Shown in pieces: positions 1 to 20,950 of a stretch of DNA of 32,000 nucleotides. Origin of the DNA: Candidatus Scalindua sp. GTDB taxonomy: Bacteria; Planctomycetota; Brocadiia; Brocadiales; Scalinduaceae. The stretch's first letter is position 1, and the number at the start of each line of letters is the position of its first letter. The notes below the pieces were generated by a model, which was not told the DNA's origin, ran no database searches, and saw only the letters and a program-made list of their open reading frames with translations. Position numbers and translations under genes: made by a program. The stretch spans positions 89,720 to 121,719 of the forward strand of contig JAIQZU010000039.1 in NCBI GenBank assembly GCA_021776915.1, in the 5' to 3' direction.

Positions 1-27
1 ACCTAGTTCATTGGTTAGTTAGATTTC

Positions 28-366
28 TTATATTTCAGCCTCTTTTTCTGCACGTTTAATTCTACCACAAAATTCTTCAATAGTGTTACTTTCTAATGCT
101 ATCTGAGTAAAAACTTTTAATGGCAAATTTCTCATGTCCTTAGGTGTATTAAATTCATTTATTGAAGACTGCAAATGGATTCCTAACTTTGTAATATTGT
201 CAAACACGCTCTCTTTATATAATACTGTCCCCATAATACCCAAATTTGATTTTTTTATTAAAACACCAGACTGAGCTATACTTATGTATATAGGGTCACC
301 ACTCAGTAAATCGACTCTTGACCAACGCTGAGCATCAGTATCTTTAAACCTTATCAATTTACTCAT
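28..366 (-). CDS. hypothetical small protein (113 aa from MSKLIRF...)
   Basis: The ORF track gives 28..444. The internal ATG at 366 is preceded by AAGGAG (revcomp of 371-380 region, taaggagaaataatATG), whereas the upstream extension runs through a GC-rich hairpin. No recognisable motif. Confidence 0.5.
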   Translation of the reverse strand: MSKLIRFKDTDAQRWSRVDLLSGDPIYISIAQSGVLIKKSNLGIMGTVLYKESVFDNITKLGIHLQSSINEFNTPKDMRNLPLKVFTQIALESNTIEEFCGRIKRAEKEAEI

Positions 367-413
367 ATTATTTCTCCTTATTATATTTTGTTGTTTGTGT
401 CTAACGACAATAT

Positions 414-441
414 CAGCCGCCGCGCTTTTTGCGGTCGGCTG
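414..441. other. GC-rich stem-loop (CAGCCGCCGC-gcttttt-GCGGtCGGCTG) between two minus-strand genes
   Basis: A 10-bp stem with one bulged T and a 7-nt loop, read directly. It is conspicuous in AT-rich surroundings. On the + strand it is followed by CATTTTCT; there is no U-tract on the - strand. Confidence 0.3.
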
Positions 442-523
442 CATTTTCTGGTTAGAAAATATTTTAATCTATCCTCTAGTTTTTGAATAATGAATATTTA
501 AGAAGCGGCCCTAGGCTTGCCCT

Positions 524-946
524 TTATGTCTCCCTTCTTTCTTGCCCATTATTTTTGTCCAATGTGGTTACTATTGATTTAAGATGATCAATTTGTTGAA
601 TCATTAGCTTGGTATCATGATGAGAAGTTTTAAGAGACCAAAAAAAGCCTAGAATAGCAATAATAAATGCTGCACAAGACACGAAAACGCTAACATAAAA
701 AAGCTTTTGTTGGAGTATGTCTTGGCGGCGTCTAATCTCCATAGAAAATATTTGGGCCCTTGTACTATCATGAAGAATAGATGGAAAGGCTGTTTGGGTA
801 GTTGCCTGATTTATAACTGCTGAGTTGAAATGATGTACAGCCCTTTCTAAATCAATATTACTCAATTCTTTTGGGTTTCTTCGCTCTTGAGCGGAGAGAG
901 TATTAGTAAAACAAATAAATAAAATAATAACCACTATGATTTTCAT
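524..946 (-). CDS. hypothetical exported/membrane protein (N-terminal signal peptide, one C-proximal TM helix)
   Basis: MKIIVVIILFICFTNTLSAQ is a signal-like N-terminus. The hydrophobic stretch FYVSVFVSCAAFIIAILGFFW is a likely TM helix. GAGGGA Shine-Dalgarno lies 7 nt upstream of the ATG at 946. Confidence 0.55.
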   Translation of the reverse strand: MKIIVVIILFICFTNTLSAQERRNPKELSNIDLERAVHHFNSAVINQATTQTAFPSILHDSTRAQIFSMEIRRRQDILQQKLFYVSVFVSCAAFIIAILGFFWSLKTSHHDTKLMIQQIDHLKSIVTTLDKNNGQERRET

Positions 947-1147
947 ATAACTATCCCTCTAATAACTCAATATGTCAATAAGGACAACCTTCGCATATAA
1001 CTCTACCCTGTCAAGATTTTTTAATCTGCCACAATTGTTTCCAAGCCTTATTCTTTTCCTTATTTTATTTCTCTAACGCTGGCTGAGGAGTTTGAAAACC
1101 GGAAGAGTATTCACCGGTCAGCTCGATACTTTTGTTATAAATTAATT

Positions 1148-1648
1148 TTATTTCTTTAAATGACCATCAAGTGCTGCGTCAATTTGACTAAGAACAATTT
1201 TGCGTACAAGACAAACTTTTTCTTTTGATATTATTTTTCTAGAGGTGCTTTTGCAACTAAAGCACAAATATGAATCTTTTAATTCTAGCATTTCGTGTTG
1301 ATGTTTAAGGCATAAAGGAGTTGGATTTATTTCACGTGTCATTTTATCAATTTTCCATAGTAAACCTTCTTCTTCAATAAAAACATAATCTTTTAGATTG
1401 GAAATGCTATATGCAAGATTATTTTTTGTTTTGGCACAAAACCATACATACAGTACCAGAACCAAGACGATGGCTACCCATAGTGGGGTTGGTGATTGGA
1501 GTGTATTTATTAGTCCAATCCATAAGCTTTGGAAAAAAAGATAAACGCTGCCACTACCAACAATTAACGAAGCAAGTATTATTGCAATTATTGCATTATG
1601 AGAATCGGAAAAAAACTTTTTAATGTATGCTAACAATAAGTTTTTCAT
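1148..1648 (-). CDS. hypothetical membrane protein with C-terminal Cys/His cluster
   Basis: Two predicted TM helices (IIAIILASLIVGSGSVYLFF, LWVAIVLVLVLYVWF). The C-terminal CLKHQH...CFSC looks zinc-ribbon-like. The track start at 1651 is TTG, and the adjacent ATG at 1648 is preferred. No clear SD. Confidence 0.5.
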   Translation of the reverse strand: MKNLLLAYIKKFFSDSHNAIIAIILASLIVGSGSVYLFFQSLWIGLINTLQSPTPLWVAIVLVLVLYVWFCAKTKNNLAYSISNLKDYVFIEEEGLLWKIDKMTREINPTPLCLKHQHEMLELKDSYLCFSCKSTSRKIISKEKVCLVRKIVLSQIDAALDGHLKK

Positions 1649-1802
1649 CAATGGTTTATATGGCGGTTACTATGCTTAACTATTTTAACAATTAATATTA
1701 TTACGGTATTTATAACAGCACAATAAGTGGAAAACTTGTCAGCTTATTAAAACTTATCTGTCAACTACCCTGTGAATCCGCTTTGAATGAGCTTCCGGTT
1801 TT

Positions 1803-1888
1803 TGCGGTATAGAGTGGACATTGAAGCAGCATCCTTCGCGGGTATAAAGTGGACACAGTAGTTTTCCCCTGACATGAAAGTGTCCACT
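1803..1888. promoter_or_regulatory. array of AGTGGACA motifs (two direct about 18-bp repeats plus one inverted copy forming a 9-bp inverted repeat)
   Basis: GCGGTATAGAGTGGACA (1804-1820) and GCGGGTATAAAGTGGACA (1838-1855) are direct repeats. AGTGGACAC (1848-1856) and GTGTCCACT (1880-1888) form a perfect inverted repeat. A partial AAGTGGA lies at 1725-1731. Confidence 0.3.
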
Positions 1889-2028
1889 GAATTTGACAAT
1901 TCGCCATCCATGCTTTTACGCATATTTGATCGCCTCACGAATATGTTTGTTCGGATGACCGGACAAGCATTATCCATTCTTCCTTGCGTTGACATAGAGT
2001 TGGTATAGAACGGGCGTGTACACTCTGC

Positions 2029-3495
2029 TTAACTTACTGCAACACCTTTTTCTGACGGTACGGTTACGGCACTGCTCTTGTACCAGTCCTGGTAATAATC
2101 TCCTGAATCGTATAATTTATGCAGATTTTCCAGTACCTGCTCAAATACCTGTATCCAGTCAGAACCAACCCTGAAGCCGAACATGGCGTTGCGCTTGCCG
2201 TGGGTTGTACTGCCAATAGTTTGAAGTGATTTCCTGAATCTCATTCTAAGGTTGTCACCGGCATAAAGATGGTCGTACATATATTGCATACCGTCAATGA
2301 AATTCTCCAGGGACATATCAACAAGTCTGTGAACCACATGCGCAGTATCATAATACTTCCAGTCTTCAGGATAATTCTTACGGAATATCCTCTTTTCAGA
2401 ATCCAGCCTGTGGTAAAGAGCAGTCTTAGGAAACGGGCAATTGATGCCAAAGGTAAGAACGTCAATATTATTTTCCAGTACAAACTCTGTCATTCTTTTG
2501 AACGAATCTTTGTCATCACCGTCTGCTCCCAGGACTATTGATCCCCAGACAACAAGGCCATGATCATGGATTTTTTGAACGCAGTCATAATAGTTGTCAG
2601 CTCCAAGCCTTAAATTTGTCGTTTTATTCATCTTCTCCAGAACAGCCTCATTTGTCGATTCTATTCCGCAAAGAAATCCAAAATTTCCACTCTTTGCCAT
2701 CAGGTCAAGTACCTCTGCATCCTTTGATATATTGAGCGCGGTAAATCCAAGCCAGTCTTTTTTAATGCCCCTTTCTATCATACCACGAAAGAGGGCTTTT
2801 GCCCTGTTGGCAGAGTTTTTACTATGTCCATAGAAATTATCTTCCGCAAACATCAGGCCCTTGTAGTCTGTTGCTTCCATCTCGTCCAGGACGTCTTCGT
2901 ATGGCCTCTCTCTGTATTTCTTTCCCTGAAAGGTTGGTACGCTGCAGAAATCGCAGTAATTTGGACAACCTTTCGTTGTGACAATAGAGGAAAACTTGTA
3001 ATCATATTTCTTTTTCAGGAGTTCCCTATTGGGAAAGACATGCTTCATCTCTGACAGGCCTGGAAGCCCGCCTTCGTACTTCTTTTTGAGTTCGCCATTT
3101 TCAAAATCTTTAATGACTTGCGGCCACAATGTTTCGGCCTCTCCGATAAAAATTGCATCTACATATTTTGAAGCTTCTTCAGGCACTACTGATGCATGTA
3201 TACCACCCATGACTACGGTCATACCTTTTTTCCTGCAGGCTTCGGCTATCTTGTAAGCTCTTGACACTTGGTATGTAACAGAAGTAATACAAACCATATC
3301 CACAGGCTCAAATGTAATTTCTCCGTTATCATCAAGGGCCAGTTCTATATTTTCATCGATTACGTCAAACTCCCAGTCACCCGGCGTAAGGGCTGCTATG
3401 TATGCCAGGTTTAAAGGCATTTGAACTATGACAGATATACTCTCCTCACCATGTCGCCCCGGTGGATGTGGATTGATAAGCATCATTTTTCTCAT
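2029..3495 (-). CDS. B12-binding (class B) radical SAM enzyme
   Basis: The N-terminal Rossmann-like cobalamin-binding region (VCITSVTYQVSRAYKIAEACRKKGMTVVMGGIHAS) is followed by the radical SAM cluster motif C177-PNY-C181-DF-C184. A strong SD (GGAGGAGG) is present. The ATG overlaps the upstream stop as ATGA. Confidence 0.9.
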   Translation of the reverse strand: MRKMMLINPHPPGRHGEESISVIVQMPLNLAYIAALTPGDWEFDVIDENIELALDDNGEITFEPVDMVCITSVTYQVSRAYKIAEACRKKGMTVVMGGIHASVVPEEASKYVDAIFIGEAETLWPQVIKDFENGELKKKYEGGLPGLSEMKHVFPNRELLKKKYDYKFSSIVTTKGCPNYCDFCSVPTFQGKKYRERPYEDVLDEMEATDYKGLMFAEDNFYGHSKNSANRAKALFRGMIERGIKKDWLGFTALNISKDAEVLDLMAKSGNFGFLCGIESTNEAVLEKMNKTTNLRLGADNYYDCVQKIHDHGLVVWGSIVLGADGDDKDSFKRMTEFVLENNIDVLTFGINCPFPKTALYHRLDSEKRIFRKNYPEDWKYYDTAHVVHRLVDMSLENFIDGMQYMYDHLYAGDNLRMRFRKSLQTIGSTTHGKRNAMFGFRVGSDWIQVFEQVLENLHKLYDSGDYYQDWYKSSAVTVPSEKGVAVS

Positions 3496-4952
3496 TTTTC
3501 CTCCTCCTGATTATTTAAAATCATATTTGCTGCCTTCCAGCCGGATGAGACAACAGCACATATCCCAGGCCCCGGATTAGTCCAGTGTCCTGCAAGAAAA
3601 AGATTTTTGAAGGGCGTCGTATGCTGAAGTCTGTTTGACCATGTCTGGTCAACGGTAACAGCCCAGCCATAAGCAGCGCCTTTTGAATTATGCGTATAAC
3701 GATATAGAGTCTTTGGCGTAGCGGCATCAATCACTTCTATATGGTCCTGAATGTCAGGTGTAAAATTCTCAAGGTAGCTTATTGTGTGTTCTTTCATTTT
3801 ATTCTTAAAGGATGCCCAATCTTCTACATCGTCATAACTTTCTCTTAATGAGACAACAATAGAAATTATTTGTTTTTTATCAGGCGCCAGACTTGAATCT
3901 ATATCAGTTGGAACGGATATATAAAACCAACCATTATTGGAAAAGCTTATGTCATTAGATGTGTGATAGAAACCCCTTTTCAGGCCTTTTAAGTCGACCT
4001 TACTATCAAGACCAAGGTATAACAAGAAGAATGATACACTCTCTTTCATGCTCTCGATCTTGCGAAGGTAGGAATCGTCAGCAACGTCTCCTTCCATCAA
4101 ACAGAAAAATGTTTGTCGGGGGTCAATGTTTGACACAAAAAAATCTGCATCAATTTTTTTCCCCTTTTCCGTTGCAACTCCTTTTGCAATGCCATCCTCT
4201 GTGAGCAGGCTCTTTACTTTTGAAGATAGCATAATGTGGCCGCCATAGTCAATAAATTTCTGAGTGATTGCATCGGTAAAATTCTGGGTTCCACCAACAG
4301 GGAAATAAGCCCCGTCCTTCAGATAATTTACCAGCATCTGACACATACCAATGGCCGAAACTTCGTGAGGTGGTGAACCAATATACCCCCACTGTGCAGA
4401 CAGTACCATCTTAAGCTGCTCATCGGTAAAGAAATTATCCAGCATTTCCTTATATGTAAGGTTTTGATACTTGATAACCATCTTATGTCTTTCAGCGCTG
4501 AAAGTGACTCTGTACAATCCTATGAACTCTTTAAAGAATAACGATATGTTTTCGTTTTCAGATGGAAAACGTTCCTTCAGCAGATCAATATAATCGTCAA
4601 TTTCTGCAGGTATATCTATGGAAAATGAAGGGAAATTTATGCTGTCCATAGGATCAAGCCGCAAAAAATTAATTTTTATATCAAGTTCCTTAAGGCACCT
4701 GCCAACTACACTCCATTTACCACACCCACCAATGTGGTGGACAGCCGCATCAAAAATAAAACCTTTTCTCTTGAAAGAAGTACAATAACCTCCGGGTATG
4801 CTATGCTGCTCTATAATCAGCACTTTCTTCCCACTCTTTGCCAGGAAGGTTCCGCAGATTAAACCGGCAATTCCGGCTCCCAGTATGATTATATCGTACT
4901 TAGATTTTATTTCGGATTTATCAATGGAAAAGTTATGCATGGAAACAAACAC
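3492..4952 (-). CDS. FAD-dependent oxidoreductase, phytoene desaturase (CrtI)/amine-oxidase-like
   Basis: Dinucleotide-binding DIIILGAGIAGLICGTFLAKSGKKVLIIEQHSIPGG (GxGxxG...E) at the N-terminus. Length and the C-terminal LFLAGHWTNPGPG motif are typical of the CrtI family. The track start at 4952 is GTG; an alternative ATG lies at 4940. Confidence 0.85.
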   Translation of the reverse strand: MFVSMHNFSIDKSEIKSKYDIIILGAGIAGLICGTFLAKSGKKVLIIEQHSIPGGYCTSFKRKGFIFDAAVHHIGGCGKWSVVGRCLKELDIKINFLRLDPMDSINFPSFSIDIPAEIDDYIDLLKERFPSENENISLFFKEFIGLYRVTFSAERHKMVIKYQNLTYKEMLDNFFTDEQLKMVLSAQWGYIGSPPHEVSAIGMCQMLVNYLKDGAYFPVGGTQNFTDAITQKFIDYGGHIMLSSKVKSLLTEDGIAKGVATEKGKKIDADFFVSNIDPRQTFFCLMEGDVADDSYLRKIESMKESVSFFLLYLGLDSKVDLKGLKRGFYHTSNDISFSNNGWFYISVPTDIDSSLAPDKKQIISIVVSLRESYDDVEDWASFKNKMKEHTISYLENFTPDIQDHIEVIDAATPKTLYRYTHNSKGAAYGWAVTVDQTWSNRLQHTTPFKNLFLAGHWTNPGPGICAVVSSGWKAANMILNNQEEEK

Positions 4953-4959
4953 TATGAAG

Positions 4960-6195
4960 TTATGAATATTTTGAGATGATTATGGATGAAATGTTGCCAG
5001 TATCAGAAAAGGAGTTTACAAGTACGTTTTTGACTTCTGATTCCCTGCTATTGTCAGGTACACAATCCAGATTGCACTCTTCATCTTTTTCCTGATAGTT
5101 TATTGTCGGGGGAATGATACCATTATTAATTGCTAATACACCGGCAACACATTGTATGACCCCCGATGCATCAAGGCATTCTCCTGTCATTGACTTTATG
5201 GCGCTCACAGGAACCTTCTCAGCATGATCACCAAAATAATCTTTAATAATTCCTGCCTCCATTTTATCACCGGTCACACTGGAATTCGCACATGCAGATA
5301 TATAAGAAATGTCCTCACCGCTAAGACCGGCATCTTTCATTGCCAGAGAAATACATCTTACACCCTGTGACGTATCAATATTTTCATGTGAAATCTTATC
5401 TGGATTAAACGTACTCCCGTACCCTTTTATTTCAGCATAGATATTCGCATTTCTTTCCAGTGCGTCTTCAAGCCTCTCTATCATCAGCAATGCAGACGCC
5501 TCACCAATTATAAACCCATTGCGTCTTTTATCAAATGGCGCAGAGATCTCAATACCACCATTCCTGCTCCCTGATAATACTCCTGACCTGTAAGCACCCC
5601 AGAATATATCAGCAGTCAACCCATGAGCCCCGCCGGCCAATACTGCCTTTCCTCTGCCCAATCTTAAAAAGTCAGAAGCGTAAATAATAGCATCCAGCCC
5701 ACTGGCCACTCCTGTAGATATAGTGGAATTCAAACCGGTCGCTTTACAGAAAATAGAGGCTCTGCTTGCAGGTGCATTCAGGACGGTATTTGGAAAATCC
5801 ATGGGATTAACAAAGGTAGGTCCCTCCTGTAATCCTTCCAGGTCAAATGAACTGATACTGCCTATACTGCCATAGGTTGAACCTATTACAATTCCCAGTT
5901 CTTCCTCACTGTAAATTTCGTGGGTAACTTTAGCGTCATCCATTACCAGCTTTGCAGCCGAAGATACCAATAAAGATGTCCTGTCTATGTGGCGTATACC
6001 TTTTTTACCTAAATACTCCTTTGCATCAAAATCTGATATTTCACCTGCTTTCTTACTTTTATATTTAGAGACATCAAACAGCGTAATATCTTTTATTCCG
6101 GAAACACCGTTTGTCAGATTATTCCAGAACGCATCCTTATTTACACCGATTGGTGACAATATACTTATTCCAGTTATAACCAGACGGCTATTCAT
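4960..6195 (-). CDS. beta-ketoacyl synthase-like protein lacking the catalytic triad (chain-length-factor-like partner)
   Basis: Thiolase-fold KAS-II-like over its full length. At the positions aligning to the neighbouring KS residues C163/H296/H333 it has V163 (STGVASG), C302 (SACANSS) and E339 (KSMTGEC). Confidence 0.85.
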   Translation of the reverse strand: MNSRLVITGISILSPIGVNKDAFWNNLTNGVSGIKDITLFDVSKYKSKKAGEISDFDAKEYLGKKGIRHIDRTSLLVSSAAKLVMDDAKVTHEIYSEEELGIVIGSTYGSIGSISSFDLEGLQEGPTFVNPMDFPNTVLNAPASRASIFCKATGLNSTISTGVASGLDAIIYASDFLRLGRGKAVLAGGAHGLTADIFWGAYRSGVLSGSRNGGIEISAPFDKRRNGFIIGEASALLMIERLEDALERNANIYAEIKGYGSTFNPDKISHENIDTSQGVRCISLAMKDAGLSGEDISYISACANSSVTGDKMEAGIIKDYFGDHAEKVPVSAIKSMTGECLDASGVIQCVAGVLAINNGIIPPTINYQEKDEECNLDCVPDNSRESEVKNVLVNSFSDTGNISSIIISKYS

Positions 6196-6202
6196 AATAT
6201 TT

Positions 6203-7423
6203 CTAACCCGTAAACTTTTTTAATATAAGACTGCTGTTATTACCGCCAAAGGCGTACGCGTTATTCATGGCAATATCGACCTGCATTTCACGTTTTACAT
6301 TTGGAACAAAATCCAAGTCACACTCAGGGTCTTTAGTTTCATAGTTTATAGTTGGTGGAACTACGCTTTCCTTTATGGCCAACGCACATGCAATCGCTTC
6401 TATAGCGCTTGCGGCTCCCATTGTGTGTCCAATCATTGATTTTATGGAGCTTATTGCCAGCTTTTTCGCATGTTCACCAAAAACCCTCTTTATAGATATC
6501 GTCTCAGCCTTATCGTTAGCAACTGTGCCCGTACCATGCGCACTCACATATTGCACATCTTCCGGTTTAATCCTGGCACTTTTCAAGGCTTTTTTCATTG
6601 CCGATGTAACACCATTTCCCTCCGGATGCGGAATTGTTATATGGTAACCATCGCAGCTCAGGCCGTATCCCAGGATTTCAGCATATATATTTGCGTTCCT
6701 CGCCAGTGCACCTTCCAGGGATTCCAGTAACAGCATTCCGGCGCCTTCACCAACTAACAACCCCTTTCTATCTTTGTCAAAAGGCTGGCAAATCTCAGGA
6801 GCAATAGCGTTAAGCCTGCTGAAACCAACAAAAGCTACCTTAGAAAACGGATCAGAGCCTCCGGCCAGCATTACATCAGCCCTTCCCAGCTTTATCAGGT
6901 CACATGCATAGCCAATAGCGTAGTTTCCTGCAGCACATGCAGTAGGGATTATTGTACTTGGTCCCTTAAGGCCAAATTCAATAGATATATTAGACGGCAT
7001 ATTAACACACGGATGCCTTTGAAACAGGACAGGGTCTACGCTCTCTTCTCCCTTTTCAAATCTTATATAATTTACCTTTTCGAGGATTTGAATCTCACCT
7101 GCGGTTGTTCCAATCGAAACTCCGGTTCTTTCAGGATCAATATTATCTAAACCAACCTTAGAGTCATCGATGGCAAGTTTTGCGGCCGCTATGGCAAACT
7201 GAGAACCTTTACCGATTTCCCGATCTGATCCACTACTTATATAATCACTGTAATTGAAATCTTTAACGAAACAGCCTCTATGTACCTTGAAGACGGATGT
7301 GTCAAATGCCGTGATCTCAGATACACCGGATGTGCCGGAAATTAATGCATCCCAGAACACATCATTCTTATTCCCTATAGGAGAAATTACACCCACACCG
7401 GTAATTACAATTCTTTTGTCCAT
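6203..7423 (-). CDS. fabF: beta-ketoacyl-ACP synthase II family enzyme (catalytically complete)
   Basis: Active-site Cys in IPTAC163AAGNYAIG. His residues in SAH296[11 protein letters not shown] and KSMIGH333[19 protein letters not shown]-terminus. Confidence 0.9.
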
Positions 7424-7451
7424 GGTTGCTTTGTGAAAACTATTATTGTGT

Positions 7452-7901
7452 TCAGCCTGTCAATGACTCTTTATCGGCAACACCAAAGCTCAATGTAGCT
7501 TTTGCGACAACCTTCTCTCCCACTTTAGCTACACCCTTAACTATTGCCGCGCTCGAAATAATCTTCTCAGTATTAATTTCTAAAATAAGTTGGTCGCCGG
7601 GGAAAACCGGCTTTGAGAAACGGACGTTCGCTGATGCCAGCAAAAAAACTTTGTCCTTATCCTTCTCAGTATCAAAGCTCTTTTTAAAAAGTATGATCGC
7701 GGCTTGTGCCAGGGCTTCTATAATTAAAACGCCCGGCATTATGGCAAAATCAGGGAAGTGACCGGCGAAGAAAGGCTCATTGCCAGAAATGTTCTTTAAA
7801 CAAACAATTCTGTTTTCTTTTTGAAACTCAATAACTTTGTCAATAAATAAGAACGGATATTTTTGCGGAACCAACTCTCTTACTTCCTCAAAGCTTAACA
7901 T
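7452..7901 (-). CDS. fabZ: 3-hydroxyacyl-ACP dehydratase, FabZ-like hot-dog fold
   Basis: [14 protein letters not shown]48[14 protein letters not shown]62ALAQ (catalytic His/Glu signature). 149 aa. Confidence 0.9.
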
Positions 7902-7985
7902 TTATAACAACCTTTCGTCTTAATTGTTATAGCCTGACCGCTTCCACGATTTATGGGACAGGCATCTATGAAGAAGTATTATACA

Positions 7986-8249
7986 CTATTTTTTCTCATT
8001 TTCTTCAAGGGTAGACCTTGTCATTTCAATTGTGGCATTCAGTGACGTAATGTCTACAAGTTTCTCTTCCGGAATTTGAACCTTAAATTTCTTTTCTATA
8101 AGAGCAAGAATTTCCAGTGCCAACAAGGAATCTATCTCCAAATCCTTAAAAAAATCAGCATCTCTTTTCTCCCATATTTCATCCTCATCCAGCTCCGTTA
8201 CCTCTGCTACAATTGCAGTAATATCTTTTTCTAAGTTCTCTATAGACAA
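7986..8249 (-). CDS. acyl carrier protein (dedicated, operon-leading)
   Basis: 87 aa, acidic, with the phosphopantetheine attachment motif LEIDS41LLALEI. Start codon is TTG at 8249, 7 nt downstream of AAGGAGG. Confidence 0.9.
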   Translation of the reverse strand: MSIENLEKDITAIVAEVTELDEDEIWEKRDADFFKDLEIDSLLALEILALIEKKFKVQIPEEKLVDITSLNATIEMTRSTLEENEKK

Positions 8250-8294
8250 TATCTTACCTCCTTAAGAAAGCATATAGAAATCTAAACATATGTA

Positions 8295-8323
8295 AAAATA
8301 TCAAACTTATATTAATATGTCAA
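8295..8323 (-). promoter_or_regulatory. candidate sigma70-type promoter of the ACP operon (TTGACA-17-TATTTT)
   Basis: On the minus strand, TTGACA is the revcomp of 8318-8323, followed by a 17-nt spacer and TATTTT (revcomp of 8295-8300), about 45 nt upstream of the ACP start. Sequence match only. Confidence 0.3.
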
Positions 8324-8670
8324 TAACAATATTCAAGGTGTATGATCACAATTTTAAGGAAGTTTATTTCTGGTACATAATCTGTATATATTAAAGGCTT
8401 CTCAGTAATTATTAAAAAACATAGCTTCTAAATACAGGGCAATTCAAACTGTTTTAGCGCTAATGTCAAATGATTCTTTTTCCTTTCGTGTACGGACGAA
8501 CGAAAAAGGTACTAACCAGATCAGCGACCAGCTTTAGTAATTCCAGCTAAGATTATGGTTTTTCGTATTATGTTTATCAAATTCTTCCATCTCCACCAAA
8601 ATTTTTATCCTGAAAGTAATACAATCATGTAAAAGTATCCACAAAGTAAAAGCCTGTAAATATTACAAAA

Positions 8671-8716
8671 TCTTGTTATTTAGATTCAAGACGCCCATTT
8701 AATCTAAATAACAAGA
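8671..8716. repeat. perfect 16-bp inverted repeat with 14-nt spacer (TCTTGTTATTTAGATT / AATCTAAATAACAAGA)
   Basis: Read directly: arms at 8671-8686 and 8701-8716. It ends 19 bp upstream of the parA -35 box. On the minus strand the hairpin is followed by TTTTGTAATATTT. Confidence 0.8.
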
Positions 8717-8734
8717 ATATTTACATAAATATGC

Positions 8735-10472: not shown

Positions 10473-11498
10473 TCATTTATGAGGCTCAATAATCACTTTT
10501 ACTGATTCTTTGGCGTCAGTAACGAGTTTAAAACCACGTTCAGTCTCTGCCAATCCTAAACGATGAGTAATCATATCTTGTACCGGCACACGATTAGAAC
10601 TAATCAGTCTTATCGCCACATCTATATCAATAGGGCTGGCGCCGTATGTGGGCATTAAGGTTATACAATCACGCCAGAAATCATTGAACGGAACAGGGAG
10701 TTCAACATCAGGGCCTCCGGGAGCAAAGAACAGGACAGTACCTCCACGGCCAACAGATTTAAGCGCTGTTTTTAAGGCAGGAACGGCTCCCGTAGTAGCA
10801 ATCACACGATCAGCAAGCCTGTTACCATTTAACTTGAGCAGATGCGAAGGAAGATCATCATGAGCAGATATAACAGAGTCGGCGCCAAGCTTTCCTGCCA
10901 TGTCCATGCGATATTCACTTATGTCCGTCGCAATTATCTTTCCCGCTCCTGATGCTCGAGCAAGTAATATGTGGAGAAGGCCGGAAATTCCACTGCCAAT
11001 AACTACTACAGTCTGGCCGGGCTCTATGCGTGCTAATCTCTGCCCGCGAACCACACAGGCCAGTGGTTCGATTAATGTCCCGTCTTCCAGCGACATATTA
11101 TCAGGAAGTATAAATACTCCCCTGTCTACATTGATCTCCGGTACCCGTACATATTCAGCAAAGCCACCGGGATCAAAATTCGTGCTACGCAATGTATCAC
11201 AAACAGTATGGTTGCCATTTAAGCAATAATGACAGGTGTTGCATGGCACATGATGAGAAACGAATACCCTGTCACCTTTTTTGAATCGATTGACACCTTC
11301 TCCAATTTCTACGATTTCACCGGTAGCCTCATGACCAAGTACAAGCGGCGCCTTGTGAATACGATACCACTCCATTACATCACTGCCGCAGATGCCGCAG
11401 GCCAGCGATTTCAATAATACCTCACCAGCGCCAACCTGTGGAGTCGGCATTTCCTCCACCCTTATGTCATGATTGTTGTAATACATTGCTACGCGCAT
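10473..11498 (-). CDS. zinc-dependent alcohol/polyol dehydrogenase (MDR superfamily)
   Basis: GICGSDV, GHEATGEIVEIGEGV, structural zinc loop CNTCHYCLNGNHTVC, NAD-binding VIGSGISGL. Confidence 0.85.
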   Translation of the reverse strand: MRVAMYYNNHDIRVEEMPTPQVGAGEVLLKSLACGICGSDVMEWYRIHKAPLVLGHEATGEIVEIGEGVNRFKKGDRVFVSHHVPCNTCHYCLNGNHTVCDTLRSTNFDPGGFAEYVRVPEINVDRGVFILPDNMSLEDGTLIEPLACVVRGQRLARIEPGQTVVVIGSGISGLLHILLARASGAGKIIATDISEYRMDMAGKLGADSVISAHDDLPSHLLKLNGNRLADRVIATTGAVPALKTALKSVGRGGTVLFFAPGGPDVELPVPFNDFWRDCITLMPTYGASPIDIDVAIRLISSNRVPVQDMITHRLGLAETERGFKLVTDAKESVKVIIEPHK

Positions 11499-11506
11499 TT
11501 TCTAAG

Positions 11507-12295
11507 TTACCCGTTCTTTGTGCCATTGAATATATCGTTGGCCTCATTGGCAGTTGCATTCTTATGGATAATGGCATGCAGTGCCTTGGCCATGGCAACC
11601 GGATGCTCATGCTGCCAGATATTCCTACCAAGATTTAACCCTATAGCCCCCTTCTGCATACCATCATGAACAAATTCAAATACAGGCAATTCTGTATCAA
11701 ACTTCGGCCCACCTGCTATAACTACGGGCACAGGGCAACCCTCAGTAACCTTATCAAAATCTTCACACCAGTATGTTTTTACCACCTTGGCGCCTATTTC
11801 TGCAGCGATACGGCAGCACAATCCCAGATACTTGGCGTCCCGTTTCTCCAGCTCCTTACCAACGGCTGTAACCGCCATTACGGGAATTCCGTATTCTTCA
11901 CATTCATCCACTAGTTTTCCAAGATTCAACAATGTCTGTCTCTCATAATCGCTGCCAATAAAGACAGATATGCCCACCCCTGCAACATTGAGACGAACAG
12001 CATCTTTTATAGCAGTAGTAAGCCCTTCATTTGCAAGGTCTCCTCCAACTATACTGGTGCCACCTGATACCCTGAGAATGATGGGTTTGCTGCCAACCGG
12101 GTCTATGGCGGCACGCAAAACCCCCCTTGTACAAAAAAGTGCATCACAATACTCAATAATCGGCTTAATGGTCTCGCCCGGTTTCTCAAGTTTGCTTGTA
12201 GGTCCCAGGAAATATCCATGGTCTATCGGCATAAACATGCATTTGCCATCAGTCCCCATCAGCGATGACAACCTGTTTTTCATTCCCCAATCCAT
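11507..12295 (-). CDS. class I aldolase of the DhnA / LsrF / ADH-synthase (AroA') family
   Basis: MFMPIDHGYFLGP, GAKVVKTYW (Schiff-base Lys context), GLNLGRNIWQ. GGAGGTG SD. The stop lies 8 bp before the ADH start. Confidence 0.8.
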   Translation of the reverse strand: MDWGMKNRLSSLMGTDGKCMFMPIDHGYFLGPTSKLEKPGETIKPIIEYCDALFCTRGVLRAAIDPVGSKPIILRVSGGTSIVGGDLANEGLTTAIKDAVRLNVAGVGISVFIGSDYERQTLLNLGKLVDECEEYGIPVMAVTAVGKELEKRDAKYLGLCCRIAAEIGAKVVKTYWCEDFDKVTEGCPVPVVIAGGPKFDTELPVFEFVHDGMQKGAIGLNLGRNIWQHEHPVAMAKALHAIIHKNATANEANDIFNGTKNG

Positions 12296-13578: not shown

Positions 13579-14493
13579 TTAGCTCCTGGCAACAAACTCT
13601 TCCTGACTGACCGAACGAAAAAATCTGCTCCTTTCTTTCCTGCCTTTCGGCGGCAGACCTTGAGGAACCGGACACTGTCTTAAGGCTTCGTCACATTGAC
13701 CGCACACCGGAAAAGGCATAGAGTTTTTCAAGGCCCTCCTTTTCATTTCGGCTATAACAGAAACATCATCATTTGCCAGATTCCCGATTCGTGTAGCGCC
13801 GGTCAGGTCATGGCAGCATGCCAGCGCCTCCCCTTCCCATGTTACAAAGGTATGGAACTGAAAAAGGCTGCATATTCCGGATTCAAGTCCAATGGATCGA
13901 GGTGCATATATTTCCTGCAATCTTAGATTTCCACCCCGTCCGTGACATACTGTCATACTGGAGCCTACACCTCGCTCCTTCCAGAAACTGACATATTCTT
14001 CCTGTTCTCCACTATTGATATCAGTAATTATACCAGTAACCCTCAAGCCCACATTTCCCCTGGCAATATCTATTAATTCAAGAGTCCTCTTTAATGCGTC
14101 CTCATAAGACACATTTGGGCATAACTTCTCAAAGACACTTTTTCGCAGGCTTGGAAAAGAAAGTGTAATGGAATTGGGACTGGACTCGACAAGCCTTTGA
14201 GAAATATTTCTATTTAATGATGCAGGGTTTATCACGATCCCCACATCACCATCTTTCCTGCGGATGTCGTAAATCCATTCAAAAACCTTCTGGTGTGATA
14301 GAGGATCACCCATGCCAGAGAATGTAATAAGGCTTCCTTCACTGACAAGTTTATCCGTGACTGCCTTGAATACGTTTTCAGACATAAAACCCTCAGGCCT
14401 TGTTATAGCTTCGCGTGGACACATGAGGCAACCGGTACTGCACCGGTTGGTGAGCTCCATGTCTATGGATACAAACGCCCAGTCAGACGGCAT
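13579..14493 (-). CDS. radical SAM protein with C-terminal Cys-rich SPASM/twitch-like extension
   Basis: C18-STG-C22-LM-C25 (TNRCSTGCLMCPRE), FSGMGDPL. C-terminal ACCHD...GNL and CGQCDEALRQC. Start chosen at ATG 14493 behind GGAAGGAG; the longer track ORF (to 14673) overlaps the upstream gene by 190 bp. Confidence 0.8.
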   Translation of the reverse strand: MPSDWAFVSIDMELTNRCSTGCLMCPREAITRPEGFMSENVFKAVTDKLVSEGSLITFSGMGDPLSHQKVFEWIYDIRRKDGDVGIVINPASLNRNISQRLVESSPNSITLSFPSLRKSVFEKLCPNVSYEDALKRTLELIDIARGNVGLRVTGIITDINSGEQEEYVSFWKERGVGSSMTVCHGRGGNLRLQEIYAPRSIGLESGICSLFQFHTFVTWEGEALACCHDLTGATRIGNLANDDVSVIAEMKRRALKNSMPFPVCGQCDEALRQCPVPQGLPPKGRKERSRFFRSVSQEEFVARS

Positions 14494-15586
14494 CCTGCTT
14501 CTCCTTCCTGACTGCCTCCAGCCATGCAGTGCCAAAGCGTTTATCCGGTTCCAGATAATGGCCTTCACTCCACTCGTTCCATGACGCAATGAAGGAGAGT
14601 TGAGGTTTGTTGAATTTTCTTGTGTAGCTGATTGCACGGCCAAGAAAATCTGAAAAGAGTGCGGGGTCTTCATTTACAACAACAGGCCACCAGGGATAAC
14701 GCTCCTGTTTGTGGTATCCGTTTACGGCAGCCCGCGGTGTGGCGTCCCATCCTGGTGACACCGATGGAAAGTAAGCAAGCCCGGACTTATCAGCAAAACC
14801 TTCCCACTCTCTGCTTCGCTTTTTGACCAGTTTACCATAGTCCTGCTGGTATTCACCCTTCCAGTCAGGAAGCCAGACGTAGTGGCTTATGCTGTCAAAT
14901 CCAGACCTCTTGAACTCAGCAATCATAGAAGGCGCCGGATTGATGGCCATAAGATGAAGGCCGGGATATCCTCTCTTAATAAGATAGTCCTTAGCTTTGT
15001 AGATTGCCAGTGACGCCAGACTCGGCCCCAACTGCCGAAGGAAGAAGGTGCTGTCAAAGATAGAGAACAGGGGCATGCCATCTATGCGCAGGTAATTTGA
15101 TCTTGAAAAGTACCTTTCCTCAAGAAATCTTATCAACTCCACAAAATCATCAGGGTCGGTGTATACAAGCCTGCCTGGACCAATATCAGGGGCGGGTCGG
15201 TGTTTTACCGGAAGGACTCCACGGGGCATACGGTTTGCCCACATGAGAGAGAAAGGAAAATCATCGCCGCCATCTTTGCCTAGAAATCCATTATCAAGGG
15301 CCGCATCGAAAACACGTTTTCCCCGTGACCAGAAAAACCCGTACACAAAGAAATCCACACCGTATTCTCTGGCAAGCCCTACCTGTTTCTGTGCGGTAGA
15401 AGGAACTGAATCATCGTACGTCCCACCAACAGGGAGGCGTGGTTGATTATGACCTGGAAAACGGGACGGAGCATTCAAAACAAGGTCCCACTCACTCCAA
15501 CCCGGCTGAAAGTTACTGTCCCGTTCAACACAGGCATGCCAGCCCGGATAAACATATGCGCCAATCTTTGCATTCTCATTTGACAT
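14483..15586 (-). CDS. glycoside hydrolase family 99-like / WbsX-family glycan-processing protein
   Basis: Pattern GWSEW..V..AP.RFPGHNQPRLP...YDD, AREYGVDFFVY..FWS.GKR, DFPFSLMWAN, typical of the WbsX (GH99-like) family as recalled. The stop overlaps the radical SAM start by 11 bp. Confidence 0.75.
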   Translation of the reverse strand: MSNENAKIGAYVYPGWHACVERDSNFQPGWSEWDLVLNAPSRFPGHNQPRLPVGGTYDDSVPSTAQKQVGLAREYGVDFFVYGFFWSRGKRVFDAALDNGFLGKDGGDDFPFSLMWANRMPRGVLPVKHRPAPDIGPGRLVYTDPDDFVELIRFLEERYFSRSNYLRIDGMPLFSIFDSTFFLRQLGPSLASLAIYKAKDYLIKRGYPGLHLMAINPAPSMIAEFKRSGFDSISHYVWLPDWKGEYQQDYGKLVKKRSREWEGFADKSGLAYFPSVSPGWDATPRAAVNGYHKQERYPWWPVVVNEDPALFSDFLGRAISYTRKFNKPQLSFIASWNEWSEGHYLEPDKRFGTAWLEAVRKEKQDAV

Positions 15587-15715: not shown

Positions 15716-17260
15716 TTACAACACATTAAAACCGCGAACCTTCAGTGTTTCCTCTAACCTTTCAGACTCATTCTTTGTGAGTGCTTCTATTTCCTCGGTA
15801 TTAGGAACTATAAGCTCATCTATCAACTCCGATTTTGAGAAAATGCCTAACACTGTACTTTCATTAAGTTTGGTAACACTGCCATAAAAAGCACTAAAGA
15901 ATATAACAGTTGTGTTTTCCAACTCCACCGACGAATTAAATAAAACCACATTTACATCTTTTGCAGGTTCAGATTCAGAAGAAAATTCTAATGAAAATTT
16001 AGGATTGTACTCTTGACCAACAATGTACAGCAAGTAGAAATGTCCTATTTTCTCAAAAACTTTATAAGGATAAATAAGTTCATCAATCAAATTTAGCTCG
16101 AATAATTTACTATACGTCGCATTAAATGCATTAAATTCCATTTCAAAATTCTCGGGTACTGATGTTGAACCCTGTGATAAAGAAACTTTAAGGGGAGTGC
16201 TACCATCCTTTGGTTCAACTTCGATATAGGTCTTACCTTCACTATCCGCTTCTTTCATGAAGCTAAGAAAACCATAAAGTTCTTTGATAGGAACCTTCAA
16301 TTTTTTATCTAACAAATTTTCAACATTAAAATTTAATTCATTACTCTCTAGCCGATAAACTATTTCAAACAATGACGTCTTTATTCTCATTGCTGCAAAT
16401 TTTTTAGGCAAATGCTTTGGCACCGTATATATTAAACCGTCAAACACGTATTTCTTTGAAAATTCTGACTGACTCAACTTCACTTTGGCTTTAGTAAGTT
16501 CATTTTCTATAGGCTTTATAGTAGTTGTATGATTCTTGTCCACATGAAGAGGAATCGTATCTGGAATGCCTAAAGGTGCTTGATACGTAGTGGTATCTAC
16601 CGTAAACTCTTCGTCATAGCCCAAGAAACAGTTTGCCATTGATCTTAGTGATTTTTCGTCATTCAATGTAATATTAAAATGTAAAAGACCGCTTTCAAGC
16701 TCAATACGTTTAAGCCATTTAACTTTCCTCTCAATGTAGGTTAAATAATCGGGTTTTGCTGACCTTGAGAATAACCCACTTAAACAATATCCACTAAGCT
16801 CAGTAAGGCTACAAGCCTCATCAAATTTTATAAGTTTTTTGCTTTTGTTTAGCTTTAAATCTTTGTTAGCAACTTCCTTATTTCTGAGAGTTTGTAATAC
16901 ATTAAGCGCTAAGTCTTCGTCTATATGCAGCAAGTAAGCTCTTTCAGGGTTAATTCCAGAATCGTAAAGCGCTAGAAAAATAAAGGTTGGTCCACCAAAT
17001 TGAATCAGATTTAGTAGATTACTATACGTTAGAGAACATTCAGGCTTTCCGCTTCTCGTAGCTTTTACTTGAACCCTGTAAACTTGGCGAACCTGGGATG
17101 TGTAATCAATTGTTGGTGAGTTTGGATGCTCAACCTCAAAGTCCCAACCAGCTTTATCATCATCAGAAGCATTTACAACTAGCCCTGCATCTTTTGCTAG
17201 CAATTTAAAGAAGCTTTCTCCCATAGATCCTAGATCTTCTGACCTTTTTGTATTAATCAT
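15716..17260 (-). CDS. DUF4365-like PD-(D/E)xK nuclease-fold N-terminal domain fused to an uncharacterised domain of about 380 aa
   Basis: N-terminus GESFFKLLAKDAGL...DKAGWD40FEVE...YRVQVK66AT matches the recalled DUF4365 / restriction-endonuclease-like D...E.K pattern. The remainder has no motif I recognise. Confidence 0.65.
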   Translation of the reverse strand: MINTKRSEDLGSMGESFFKLLAKDAGLVVNASDDDKAGWDFEVEHPNSPTIDYTSQVRQVYRVQVKATRSGKPECSLTYSNLLNLIQFGGPTFIFLALYDSGINPERAYLLHIDEDLALNVLQTLRNKEVANKDLKLNKSKKLIKFDEACSLTELSGYCLSGLFSRSAKPDYLTYIERKVKWLKRIELESGLLHFNITLNDEKSLRSMANCFLGYDEEFTVDTTTYQAPLGIPDTIPLHVDKNHTTTIKPIENELTKAKVKLSQSEFSKKYVFDGLIYTVPKHLPKKFAAMRIKTSLFEIVYRLESNELNFNVENLLDKKLKVPIKELYGFLSFMKEADSEGKTYIEVEPKDGSTPLKVSLSQGSTSVPENFEMEFNAFNATYSKLFELNLIDELIYPYKVFEKIGHFYLLYIVGQEYNPKFSLEFSSESEPAKDVNVVLFNSSVELENTTVIFFSAFYGSVTKLNESTVLGIFSKSELIDELIVPNTEEIEALTKNESERLEETLKVRGFNVL

Positions 17261-17325
17261 CTTCTATAACCTGAAAAATGTTGATGGCCACTGAAATAGA
17301 TTATACCATCTATATCTCGTTGTAT

Positions 17326-17583
17326 CTAATCATCCGCTGATTCAAAAAAGGTTTTCCCTTGCCTGATAAAAGCCTGAAATAATGAATATGTAGTTTTGAT
17401 TTCACGTTTATTTTTAATGCCATTTGAGCGTATAAAGTCATATCCAACTTCCTCAATTTTGGAGAGATAGTGAAGAGATGAAAATATTTCGTCATTAAGG
17501 GGACGATTTGTGTGTAAAGGAATTTTCGGGGACTGACTAAGATTCAAATCCATAAAGCCTGTCATTTTTCGATAATTTGCCAT
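17326..17583 (-). CDS. small hypothetical ORF (85 aa), possibly a truncated gene fragment
   Basis: Lies between the RM gene and the DUF4365-like gene on the same strand. The C-terminal YSLFQAFIRQGKTFFESA resembles the N-terminal helix of YaaC/Abi-like proteins (weak recollection). No SD seen. Confidence 0.3.
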   Translation of the reverse strand: MANYRKMTGFMDLNLSQSPKIPLHTNRPLNDEIFSSLHYLSKIEEVGYDFIRSNGIKNKREIKTTYSLFQAFIRQGKTFFESADD

Positions 17584-17688
17584 AAGTATGAATTATATTT
17601 TTTAGAGTATAACGCTTTGCATAACTTACCCGAAATTGAAATGCAAATTAAACTTGGTTACATTTCAACAGACAGAAATTTGGGTAGT

Positions 17689-20874: not shown

Positions 20875-20950
20875 TATATTTCATTTTTACAAAATATTTT
20901 TTATTTCTTCTAAGTAAATTACGCCAAAATCGGGGACGTGTTTACACATC

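Follow-up and report, generated by a model that had tools for sequence, protein, structure and literature searches.

The six-gene operon analysed here, from the Candidatus Scalindua lineage, is supported as an orthologue of anammox Cluster I (kuste3603-3608), a system already known. Our preferred reading, to which we give a probability of roughly 60%, is that it forms one operon expressed from a promoter upstream of the acyl carrier protein (ACP) gene and encodes a short-chain unit contributing to ladderanes. The same cassette also occurs on contigs that seem not to be of anammox origin, which bears on how Cluster I has been tied to these lipids.

A Scalindua-lineage orthologue of Cluster I

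Within the 32-kb stretch of DNA under study (the window), positions 2029-8249 carry six minus-strand genes in one orientation, which encode, in order of transcription, an ACP, a FabZ, an active ketosynthase (KS), a triad-less homologue (KS'), a CrtI-like flavoenzyme and a radical SAM enzyme with a B12-binding domain (rSAM); successive gaps measure 84, 28, 7 and 7 bp, and the last pair overlaps by 4 bp (ATGA; Table 1). Pfam and NCBIfam assign PP-binding, FabA/FabZ, ketoacyl-synt N and C (twice), Amino_oxidase/NAD_binding_8, and B12-binding plus Radical_SAM domains. The initial annotation, made from the sequence letters, had given the same six reading frames, gaps and overlap, and these stand as described. 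All the catalytic residues it named are present in the six translations, the TTG start of the ACP gene does follow AAGGAGG (7 nt before the TTG), and Pfam finds no short-chain ketoreductase, acyltransferase or thioesterase domain in any of the six genes, in line with what it had said.

Cluster I (Rattray 2009; Javidpour 2016; Dietl 2023; Granatino 2026 preprint) was laid out by Javidpour 2016 as kuste3603 ACP, 3604 FabZ, 3605 FabF, 3606 non-canonical FabF, 3607 phytoene desaturase and 3608 SAM radical enzyme, and we read the same order directly in the K. stuttgartiensis genome CP049055.1. The window matches it gene for gene in order and orientation, with identities of 81% (ACP), 67% (FabZ), 75% (KS), 63% (KS'), 60% (flavoenzyme) and 78% (rSAM), and the amx signature residues are common to both. 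The window comes from another species and family, and the Kuenenia flanks are unlike those of Scalindua-type loci; the six genes alone are shared, and this change of flanks marks the boundary of the unit. KS' also varies at its triad positions: the first His position holds Cys in the window and Asn in Kuenenia, and the Cys position holds Val, reported as Thr in S. brodae. The closest named matches are Brocadiales or unclassified Planctomycetes/Planctomycetota metagenome-assembled genomes (MAGs), with Scalindua nearest, and synteny with Scalindua-type contigs extends into the upstream flank. The earlier identification as the putative ladderane cluster of anammox bacteria is thus borne out.

A check of synteny across Brocadiales, proposed with the initial annotation, gives a conserved order: the identical six-gene arrangement recurs in about 40 independent anammox-type contigs and is therefore not due to chance, and no anammox-type contig of sufficient length lacks the set. 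Cluster I has been reported to be highly expressed and conserved in all known ladderane producers.

Table 1. Features of the window and collinear cassettes on other contigs
Feature	Position	Strand	Details
B12-binding-domain radical SAM enzyme, kuste3608 orthologue	2029-3495	-	488 aa; C177x3C181x2C184; PF02310 + PF04055
PDH-like FAD enzyme, CrtI/amine-oxidase fold	3492-4952	-	486 aa, GTG start; PF01593 + PF13450
amxFabFmut, triad-less KS homologue, chain-length-factor-like partner	4960-6195	-	411 aa; Val163/Cys302/Glu339 at triad positions
amxFabF2, active ketosynthase	6203-7423	-	406 aa; Cys163/His296/His333; Pfam, NCBIfam
amxFabZ, 3-hydroxyacyl-ACP dehydratase, short-chain type	7452-7901	-	149 aa; His48/Glu62; TIGR01750 155.9 bits
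amxACP, dedicated acyl carrier protein	7986-8249	-	87 aa, TTG start; Ser41 in DSL; PF00550 53.6 bits
Conserved 40-nt block with sigma-70-like site	8294-8333	-	site 8323-8295: TTGACA, 17 nt, TATTTT, TG
High-GC collinear cassettes L081-L083/L089			Acidobacteria MAG label
High-GC collinear cassette L085			Planctomycetota MAG GCA_008501825.1
Further high-GC collinear cassettes L084, L091, L095, L097, L161			

A private carrier protein, a short-chain dehydratase and a ketosynthase pair

The ACP scores 148 bits against the crystallised S. brodae amxACP (7QV0_D; about 96% identity) and at most 35 bits against canonical ACPs. On the NCBIfam ACP models it stays far under the cut-offs. Its neighbour is about 92% identical to the crystallised S. 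brodae amxFabZ (8AYB/8AYI/7QV0; 264-276 bits to 8AYB/7QV0) and carries Ile69, Ser96 and Ile115, in keeping with the amxFabZ signature of Dietl 2023, in which Ile69 replaces Gly, and Ser/Thr96 and Val/Ile115 replace Lys/Arg. The orthologous amxACP is a private carrier protein: amxFabZ works on amxACP only, ignoring canonical ACP, and dehydrates 3-hydroxyacyl-amxACP fastest at C6, much more slowly at C8 and hardly at C10-C12.

The KS aligns with chain B of the B. fulgida amxFabF heterodimer (9S5H/9S5I) at 671 bits, a chain that we assign to amxFabF2 by score pattern, and KS' aligns with chain C of 9S5H at 588 bits. KS' has lost the Cys-His-His triad, as has the second FabF of Cluster I, in which Cys is replaced by Val/Thr and His by Asn/Glu/Cys. 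[quoted passage not shown] In the window itself the trait shared with type II polyketide synthases (PKSs) is an active KS gene adjoining a dead-triad homologue, the heterodimer being known only from the orthologues. This arrangement resembles the KS/CLF pairs of actinorhodin (ActA/ActB) and ishigamide (Iga11/Iga12), as does the presence of a dehydratase with no enoyl reductase. By contrast, the window has no cyclase, aromatase or in-cluster ketoreductase, and both KS proteins are nearer to FabF (372 and 286 bits to B. subtilis 4LS5) than to PKS components, so the pair probably arose by an independent duplication of FabF.

Could the set simply be a redundant housekeeping fatty-acid synthase? 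The canonical NCBIfam models do give FabZ and FabF good scores, yet the KS falls under the fabF equivalog cut-off (472 versus 493.75 bits), the ACP lies far below its own cut-offs, the second KS is catalytically dead, amxFabZ does not accept canonical ACP, and the genes share their operon with a flavoenzyme and an rSAM. Related loci have FabZ-like genes in other places, at about 30% identity, and these are probably the canonical FabZ. We reject this reading, which has next to no chance of being right.

The flavoenzyme and the radical SAM enzyme

The flavoenzyme is 81-86% identical to named Scalindua orthologues, and because these measure 477-482 aa, translation probably begins at the ATG at 4940 (482 aa, 19-bp gap), not at the GTG at 4952. 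It shares with CrtI phytoene desaturases and carotenoid isomerases the GxGxxG FAD motif (here GAGIAG) and a full-length Amino_oxidase fold, but scores 162.6 bits against TIGR02734 (cut-off 238.1) and by that score falls outside the CrtI family; the nearest solved structure, CrtI 4DGK, gives only 90 bits. The Kuenenia orthologue, kuste3607, likewise failed to replace CrtI in lycopene synthesis and did not desaturate phytoene (Javidpour 2016).

The rSAM gene has the ribosome-binding site AGGAGGAGG, and its start lies in the ATGA overlap. Its product has the CxxxCxxC motif, an N-terminal B12-binding domain (PF02310, 40.9 bits; cut-off 32.1) and, in an AF2 model (pLDDT 84), a matching fold, which together place it among class B radical SAM enzymes. 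The nearest folds found by Foldseek are AprD4, MgmA, TsrM, CysS and TokK (13-19% identity, E 1e-15 to 1e-17), among them methylases and a non-methylating dehydratase; AprD4, the best match, is described as a diol dehydratase. It shares the Rossmann-type B12 domain and CxxxCxxC barrel of the class (TsrM, TokK, CysS, MgmA, OxsB, BchE and HpnJ, with AprD4 also carrying the B12 domain) but is only 13-19% identical to any solved member and lies far below the cut-off of every NCBIfam family. The best-scoring of these is TIGR04072 (rSAM_ladder_B12, a lipid biosynthesis B12-binding/radical SAM protein), at 86.9 bits against a cut-off of 360; by this score the enzyme clearly belongs to another family. 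AprD4 is not known to need cobalamin, so the B12 domain alone is not proof of cobalamin use. The sequence does not reveal the substrate, or whether the reaction is a methylation, a cyclisation or something else.

A desaturase homologue beside a radical enzyme recalls the original proposal for ladderanes, the classical 'type a' route, in which a C20 chain from canonical fatty-acid synthesis is polyunsaturated by the PDH-like enzyme and cyclised in a cascade triggered by the rSAM; the 4-bp overlap suggests translational coupling of the two. Against this, amxFabZ and the KS/CLF prefer C6-C8 chains on a private ACP, kuste3607 lacks CrtI activity, and in the literature polyunsaturated fatty acids were not detected in either anammox cells or E. 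coli expression strains, isotope labelling does not fit, and the authors of the 2026 preprint call an early mechanistic proposal refuted. The 'type a' route is disfavoured, and we regard it as very unlikely.

Upstream block and rest of the window

In Scalindua-type contigs the 40-nt block upstream of the ACP gene is 88-92% identical, while the other intergenic DNA there has diverged. With its sigma-70-like site the block is a putative promoter; promoter-like sites in the region are no more frequent than in shuffles. Among window reading frames of at least 110 aa (all but 31155-31775), Pfam detects no domain of a thioesterase, acyltransferase or short-chain ketoreductase. The Zn-ADH/MDR-family product of 10473-11498 scores like a threonine or inosose dehydrogenase and looks unrelated to the operon. 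The 32 kb contain no hydrazine-metabolism gene, so an anammox host is indicated indirectly, by the closest named matches and the syntenic flanks. A WbsX-family glycosyltransferase gene lies at 14483-15586, about 6 kb from the operon. Membership in an aryl-polyene cluster was considered and rejected, the accessory set (aryl-starter activation, ketoreductase, LolA/MMPL-type export, acyl-/glycosyltransferases) being missing beside the operon by Pfam.

Collinear cassettes on high-GC contigs

Cluster I has been stated to be 'encountered exclusively' in ladderane producers. We found the six-gene cassette in identical order (ACP-DH-KS-KS'-PDH-B12 rSAM, genes tight or overlapping) on contigs of high GC content (0.54-0.70 where the copy is complete, reaching 0.76 in partial copies), at 31-64% identity to the window. 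Where these contigs have a label, it reads Acidobacteria or Planctomycetota and not Brocadiales. Catalytic residues are intact, dehydratase position 69 is bulky, and KS' lacks the Cys and has an acidic residue at the second His. Unlike the window, they carry an SDR ketoreductase directly after the cassette and often a divergent FabH (KAS III) alongside, and in several a further rSAM-KS-KS' module is fused on downstream. Glycoside-hydrolase genes adjoin an Acidobacteria-labelled cassette.

The initial annotation had held that finding this synteny commonly in bacteria other than anammox would tell against a ladderane pathway; collinear cassettes do exist on non-anammox-looking contigs, which goes part of the way towards that refutation, but they are rare, and we saw them only in uncultured bacteria. 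Their occurrence on non-anammox-looking contigs seems to be new here. It contradicts the published exclusivity, so that argument no longer holds as made; the cassettes weaken it and do not show a product. We think it very probable that bacteria other than anammox truly possess the cassette and that it makes a shared intermediate.

These relatives bring in another reading, that the product is a different specialised lipid or metabolite, acyl- or polyene-derived and common to anammox and a few other bacteria, and that ladderane rings come from other genes, such as loci like kuste3335-3352 or kuste2802-2805. Reducing type II systems that form polyenes, ishigamide being an example, combine a KS/CLF, a dehydratase and a ketoreductase with no enoyl reductase, a layout that fits. 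The comparison of the anammox KS/CLF with the ishigamide system has been drawn in the literature. The conserved order at such identities on labelled Acidobacteria and Planctomycetota contigs, the glycoside-hydrolase neighbours, the shared FabZ and KS' features and the failure of kuste3603-3608 to yield ladderanes on heterologous expression point the same way. However, all anammox bacteria conserve the cluster and are reported to express it strongly, their cells have yielded no polyunsaturated fatty acids, and the high-GC products could equally be ladderane-like. We consider this reading unlikely, though it is the strongest of the alternatives.

Proposed function and significance

How, then, might the unit contribute to ladderanes? 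On our preferred reading it would be a type II, carrier-bound assembly unit acting on short (about C4-C8) chains. It would have no enoyl reductase of its own and would borrow a ketoreductase from elsewhere in the genome, since the high-GC relatives carry one after the cassette and the window has none. Enoyl- or polyenoyl-amxACP would pass to the flavoenzyme for desaturation or isomerisation, and the B12-type rSAM would then form a C-C bond by radical chemistry or C-methylate; both of these roles are pure inference. In anammox bacteria the unit would most likely make an early, short-chain contribution to ladderane fatty acids, building the rings step by step or supplying one of two parts, and probably would not cyclise a finished C20 polyene. 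The link to ladderanes lies in the reported high expression and conservation in all known producers, and in the preference for C6-C8, which is as long as the linear portion of a ladderane fatty acid.

The making of ladderanes, with five fused cyclobutane rings built without oxygen or light, is a 20-year-old open problem. The earlier remark that the chemistry was undemonstrated still applies to the 2026 literature (a preprint and a review), in which no Cluster I protein has been linked to a ladderane by experiment and Cluster I is the leading candidate. Its statement that heterologous expression had given no ladderanes is also right: in anaerobic E. coli, kuste3603-3608 was transcribed and each of the six proteins could be detected, but the cells made no novel fatty acids (Javidpour 2016).

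The window adds one more orthologue of the accepted candidate cluster, a finding not new in itself. The assignment of Cluster I to ladderanes stood on two pillars, one of them exclusivity in producers, which is now contradicted. The high-GC cassettes hold the ketoreductase and FabH-type (KAS III) genes missing from the anammox operon; their lack could explain why kuste3603-3608 alone made nothing, and it suggests that the high-GC cassettes point to a more complete gene set for reconstitution. That their hosts themselves make ladderane-like lipids, with cyclobutane or otherwise strained rings, is improbable; if they do, ladderanes would not be strictly anammox biomarkers, and a self-contained cluster of 8 genes would open the ring-forming chemistry to study without recourse to the intractable anammox hosts.

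An orthologue of anammox Cluster I

The six genes of the minus-strand operon (see table) encode a dedicated acyl carrier protein (ACP), the dehydratase FabZ, a ketoacyl synthase (KS), a second, triad-less synthase (KS'), a CrtI-like flavoenzyme (PDH) and a B12-domain radical SAM enzyme (rSAM), spaced by 84, 28, 7 and 7 bp and then a 4-bp ATGA overlap. ORF listing, Pfam/NCBIfam matches and a residue script confirmed this arrangement as initially annotated, together with the catalytic residues: Ser41 within DSL in the ACP, His48/Glu62 in FabZ, Cys163/His296/His333 in KS (Val163/Cys302/Glu339 at these positions in KS'), the dinucleotide-binding motif GAGIAG in the flavoenzyme and the cluster motif C177x3C181x2C184 in the rSAM. 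AAGGAGG lies upstream of the ACP TTG start, and AGGAGGAGG upstream of the rSAM start. Because Scalindua orthologues of the flavoenzyme have 477-482 aa, its start is probably the ATG at 4940, the GTG at 4952 being too far upstream.

The initial annotation recognised in this operon the ladderane-candidate cluster of anammox bacteria, an identity supported by the gene order of kuste3603-3608, identities of 60-81% and the published amxFabZ signatures (Ile69 for Gly, Ser/Thr96, Val/Ile115), all found in the window's FabZ. Those loci comprise an ACP (kuste3603), FabZ (3604), FabF (3605), a non-canonical FabF (3606), a phytoene desaturase (3607) and a SAM radical enzyme (3608) (Javidpour 2016), and K. 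stuttgartiensis CP049055.1 has all six genes in the window's order (ACP 81, FabZ 67, KS 75, KS' 63, PDH 60 and rSAM 78% identity). Among solved structures, S. brodae amxACP (7QV0_D) shares about 96% identity with the window's ACP, and S. brodae amxFabZ (8AYB, 8AYI, 7QV0) about 92% with its FabZ; chains B and C of the B. fulgida amxFabF heterodimer entry 9S5H/9S5I match the two KS proteins at 671 and 588 bits, respectively. The best named matches of the flavoenzyme are Scalindua arabica, rubra and japonica (81-86%), and named relatives of the rSAM include Brocadia sp. AMX2 (81%), Kuenenia (78%), and Anammoxibacter and Tripitaka (about 70%). Membership of the rSAM in TIGR04072, 'rSAM_ladder_B12', was rejected (86.9 bits against a cut-off of 360). 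The system is thus already known, and the window holds one more orthologue.

Hainich groundwater contigs match the whole operon (6.2 kb) at 88% DNA identity. On the upstream side, the flanking genes (ParA, a 165-aa ORF, Zn-ADH, DeoC-type) keep their synteny with Scalindua-type contigs, the next 2 kb on the downstream side are unique to this genome, and both flanks of the Kuenenia locus differ from the window's. This limits the conserved unit to exactly six genes.

Published accounts call Cluster I conserved and highly expressed and state that it is 'encountered exclusively' in ladderane producers; the literature reports no experimental link to ladderanes. Its amxFabZ accepts amxACP-bound substrates only, converting C6 more than 10 times faster than C8 and C10-C12 hardly at all, and amxFabF2 and amxFabFmut (the KS and KS' of the cluster) pair as a KS/CLF-like heterodimer, which removes CO2 from malonyl-amxACP and has a preference for C6-C8. 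Kuste3607 fails to replace CrtI (Javidpour 2016). The initial statement that heterologous expression yields no ladderanes proved accurate: with kuste3603-3608 in anaerobic E. coli, all six proteins were made and no new fatty acids appeared (Javidpour 2016). For the chemistry, a 2026 review still lists three rival radical-SAM schemes.

Positions of features in the window and in related loci (L-numbers)
Feature	Position	Strand	Remarks
ACP, PP-binding	7986-8249	minus	87 aa, TTG start; Pfam/NCBIfam
FabZ	7452-7901	minus	149 aa; TIGR01750, 155.9 bits
KS, ketoacyl synthase	6203-7423	minus	406 aa; Pfam/NCBIfam
KS', second ketoacyl synthase	4960-6195	minus	411 aa; Pfam/NCBIfam
PDH, Amino_oxidase/NAD_binding_8	3492-4952	minus	486 aa, GTG start; Pfam/NCBIfam
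rSAM, B12-binding + Radical_SAM	2029-3495	minus	488 aa; Pfam/NCBIfam
40-nt block, TTGACA-17-TATTTT	8333-8294		upstream of operon; conserved amid diverged intergenic DNA
Inverted repeat	8664-8723		26-nt arms, 85% complementary, 8-nt spacer
Downstream region	1-2028		GC 0.34
Orphan ORFs	1765-1995; 1148-1651; 524-946; 28-444		76; 167; 140; 138 aa
Zn-ADH	10473-11498
DeoC-type protein	11507-12295
Radical SAM/SPASM ORF	13579-14673
WbsX-type glycosyltransferase ORF	14483-15586
Low-GC island	16000-23000		GC 0.34-0.35
Type ISP restriction-modification enzyme	17689-20874		1061 aa; N6_Mtase + Type_ISP_C
Full six-gene order, high-GC	L081-L083, L089, L084, L085, L091, L095, L097, L161
Consistent partial order, 13 shorter high-GC contigs	L090, L092-L094, L096, L098, L113, L148, L151, L163, L164, L166, L168
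Intermediate cassette	L137 5173-11470
SDR ketoreductase/FabH, high-GC cassettes	L081 11595-13399; L091, L092, L095, L143; L085 15083-15838; L096, L147
SDR and isomerase-like pair, anammox-type	L119 15170-15703; L136 12882-13984
rSAM-KS-KS', anammox	L003 10001-14274; L004 10001-14188
rSAM-KS-KS'-type module directly after high-GC cassette	L084 11481-15635; L085 11480-15086; L096-L098

The six-gene cassette outside anammox bacteria

Is the cassette confined to anammox bacteria? Among the matches listed, the nearest rSAM relatives occupy 80 genome loci; the first four are of Brocadiales type, and beyond them identity drops from 51% to 37%. This listing lacks Kuenenia, Brocadia and Scalindua genomes and was supplemented by searching proteins, looking up contigs and scanning metagenomes. 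Geobacter loci among these listed matches have rSAM, KS and KS', one of them also a weak FabZ-like match, and one Thermodesulfobacteriota locus has PDH and rSAM. Other FabZ-like genes in related loci share just about 30% identity with the window's FabZ and are probably canonical FabZ.

Further rSAM homologues were looked up at 55-60% identity. The locus of P0088 (NCBI label 'Acidobacteria bacterium 13_1_40CM_2_60_7'; also in GCA_036790625.1) has GC 0.60 and the order ACP-DH-KS-KS'-PDH-rSAM, DH being FabZ, with overlapping genes followed by an SDR/ketoreductase (KR) and a divergent FabH, and with pectate-lyase/GH28 and apiosidase genes on one side of the cluster. The same set of six is also present at P0084 (Planctomycetota MAG GCA_008501825.1, GC 0.57), there followed by rSAM2-KS-X-KR, and at P0058 (GC 0.66), within a larger cluster.

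The metagenome scan, seeded on the P0088-type clade, returned two sharply separated groups. The anammox-type group comprises about 40 loci (GC 0.35-0.53), all with the six-gene order and an rSAM at least 70% identical, and the high-GC group (GC 0.54-0.76) has identities to the window of 56-64% for rSAM, 38-47% for PDH, 31-46% for KS', 51-56% for KS, 44-48% for DH and 46-60% for ACP, a few short-fragment values falling outside these ranges. Some high-GC contigs are labelled Acidobacteria or Planctomycetota. Proteins of the high-GC group keep the catalytic residues, FabZ position 69 is bulky (Ile or Leu), and KS' has no Cys and replaces the second His by Asp or Glu. The 95-kb soil contig Ga0070741_10000951, which also contains locus L125, carries an intermediate cassette (GC 0.50; ACP 71%, FabZ 58%, KS 68%, KS' 51%, PDH 47%, rSAM 60%); a KS-KS'-rSAM-rSAM module is found about 10 kb downstream of this cassette, and the genes flanking it give no hint of the host's taxonomy.

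With P0088 as query, its own small clade came first (where labelled, its proteins come from Acidobacteria and Planctomycetota MAGs), a Myxococcota-labelled homologue (58%) fell just outside it, and the anammox Cluster I rSAMs followed (57-59%), before other anammox rSAM paralogues (49-50%). We conclude from these sequence comparisons that the high-GC cassette is orthologous to Cluster I, which is not exclusive to anammox bacteria, the taxon labels of the high-GC hosts coming from MAG binning and the known carriers all being non-isolates. In the literature searched we found no report of this collinear cassette; genome-mining papers note that antiSMASH calls 'ladderane' in other phyla as well, with no gene-level comparison.

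The initial annotation had named six-gene synteny that is common in non-anammox bacteria making no ladderanes as evidence against its reading. The synteny does occur on high-GC contigs, some of them with non-anammox labels, but is rare: the remaining 76 genome loci among the matches listed lack the six-gene set, and the high-GC clade is a small one of 17 clusters at ≥70% identity. A different product, common to anammox and non-anammox carriers of the cassette, has to be weighed here, and we consider it rather unlikely; we favour involvement of the operon in ladderane synthesis, with a probability of roughly 60%.

Ketoreductase, FabH and a second rSAM module

In the high-GC cassettes an SDR ketoreductase gene follows, either immediately behind the rSAM or behind a second rSAM-KS-X module, and a divergent FabH is often present too. 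The anammox operon has no KR, enoyl reductase (ER) or FabH within the unit, and the E. coli expression constructs of the literature were without KR and FabH. Since the unit lacks a KR and its high-GC relatives encode one in the cluster, the anammox operon probably borrows this activity. A candidate trans-acting KR is the SDR that two anammox-type loci carry some kilobases downstream of their rSAM gene, beside a muconolactone-isomerase-like gene and on the opposite strand; it shares 47-52% identity with the KRs of the high-GC clusters. The window ends too near its rSAM gene for such a pair to show. Two neighbours were rejected as the missing reductase: the Zn-ADH scores as threonine/inosose-dehydrogenase-like and the DeoC-type protein as an LsrF-type thiolase, and both look unrelated.

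Anammox genomes contain further rSAM paralogues, one in rSAM-KS-KS' order, a layout matching kuste2803-2805 (Javidpour 2016). In anammox bacteria this module forms a locus of its own; in high-GC relatives a module of the same layout stands directly downstream of the cassette. This suggests that the two anammox loci may descend from a single cluster that later split; a neighbour-joining tree of rSAM homologues is a rough guide, too crude for this question or for conclusions on branching order.

Flanking sequence

We infer that the 40-nt block upstream of the operon is likely its promoter, although promoter-like sites are no commoner than in shuffles. No intrinsic terminator was found 3' of the rSAM gene, and an Rfam scan of the window gave no family, cobalamin riboswitch included, at gathering score. 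The inverted repeat, in the divergent ParA/ACP intergenic region and nearer parA, is partly kept in Scalindua-type contigs and could be an operator or par site.

The four small downstream ORFs were rejected as extra cluster genes: a Pfam scan covering the last three listed and an NCBIfam scan covering the first two gave no matches, and all four lack counterparts in any related locus. This region is strain-specific. Elsewhere in the window, the island with the Type ISP enzyme also holds several ORFs without family matches and is probably a mobile defence island. The radical SAM/SPASM ORF, which has no relation to the lipid operon on the tests made, probably starts further downstream, because it overlaps the preceding WbsX-type ORF by 190 nt.

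Proposed working and implications

How might the operon work? As shown for orthologues, the ACP would be private, the KS/CLF pair would prime and elongate short chains, and FabZ would be a short-chain dehydratase. Because the unit has no ER, enoyl or polyenoyl thioesters would be left on amxACP, judging from its anatomy, and these would be substrates for desaturation or cis/trans isomerisation by the flavoenzyme, and for the rSAM. Three parts can be told apart in a structure model of the rSAM (pLDDT 84): a Rossmann B12-type domain, a radical SAM barrel and a helical C-terminal region. A fold search with this model returned AprD4, MgmA, TsrM, CysS and TokK as nearest (13-19% identity), two of which have been crystallised with pantetheinyl substrates. 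The model confirms the predicted class, with a fold compatible with methylation or C-C cyclisation alike. The C6-C8 preference and isotope data favour an early short-chain role over cyclisation of a finished C20 polyene.

The collinear high-GC cassettes contradict the published statement of exclusivity to ladderane producers. As a useful by-product, the argument from exclusivity fails, and a fuller form of the cluster is seen to occur in bacteria outside the anammox group.
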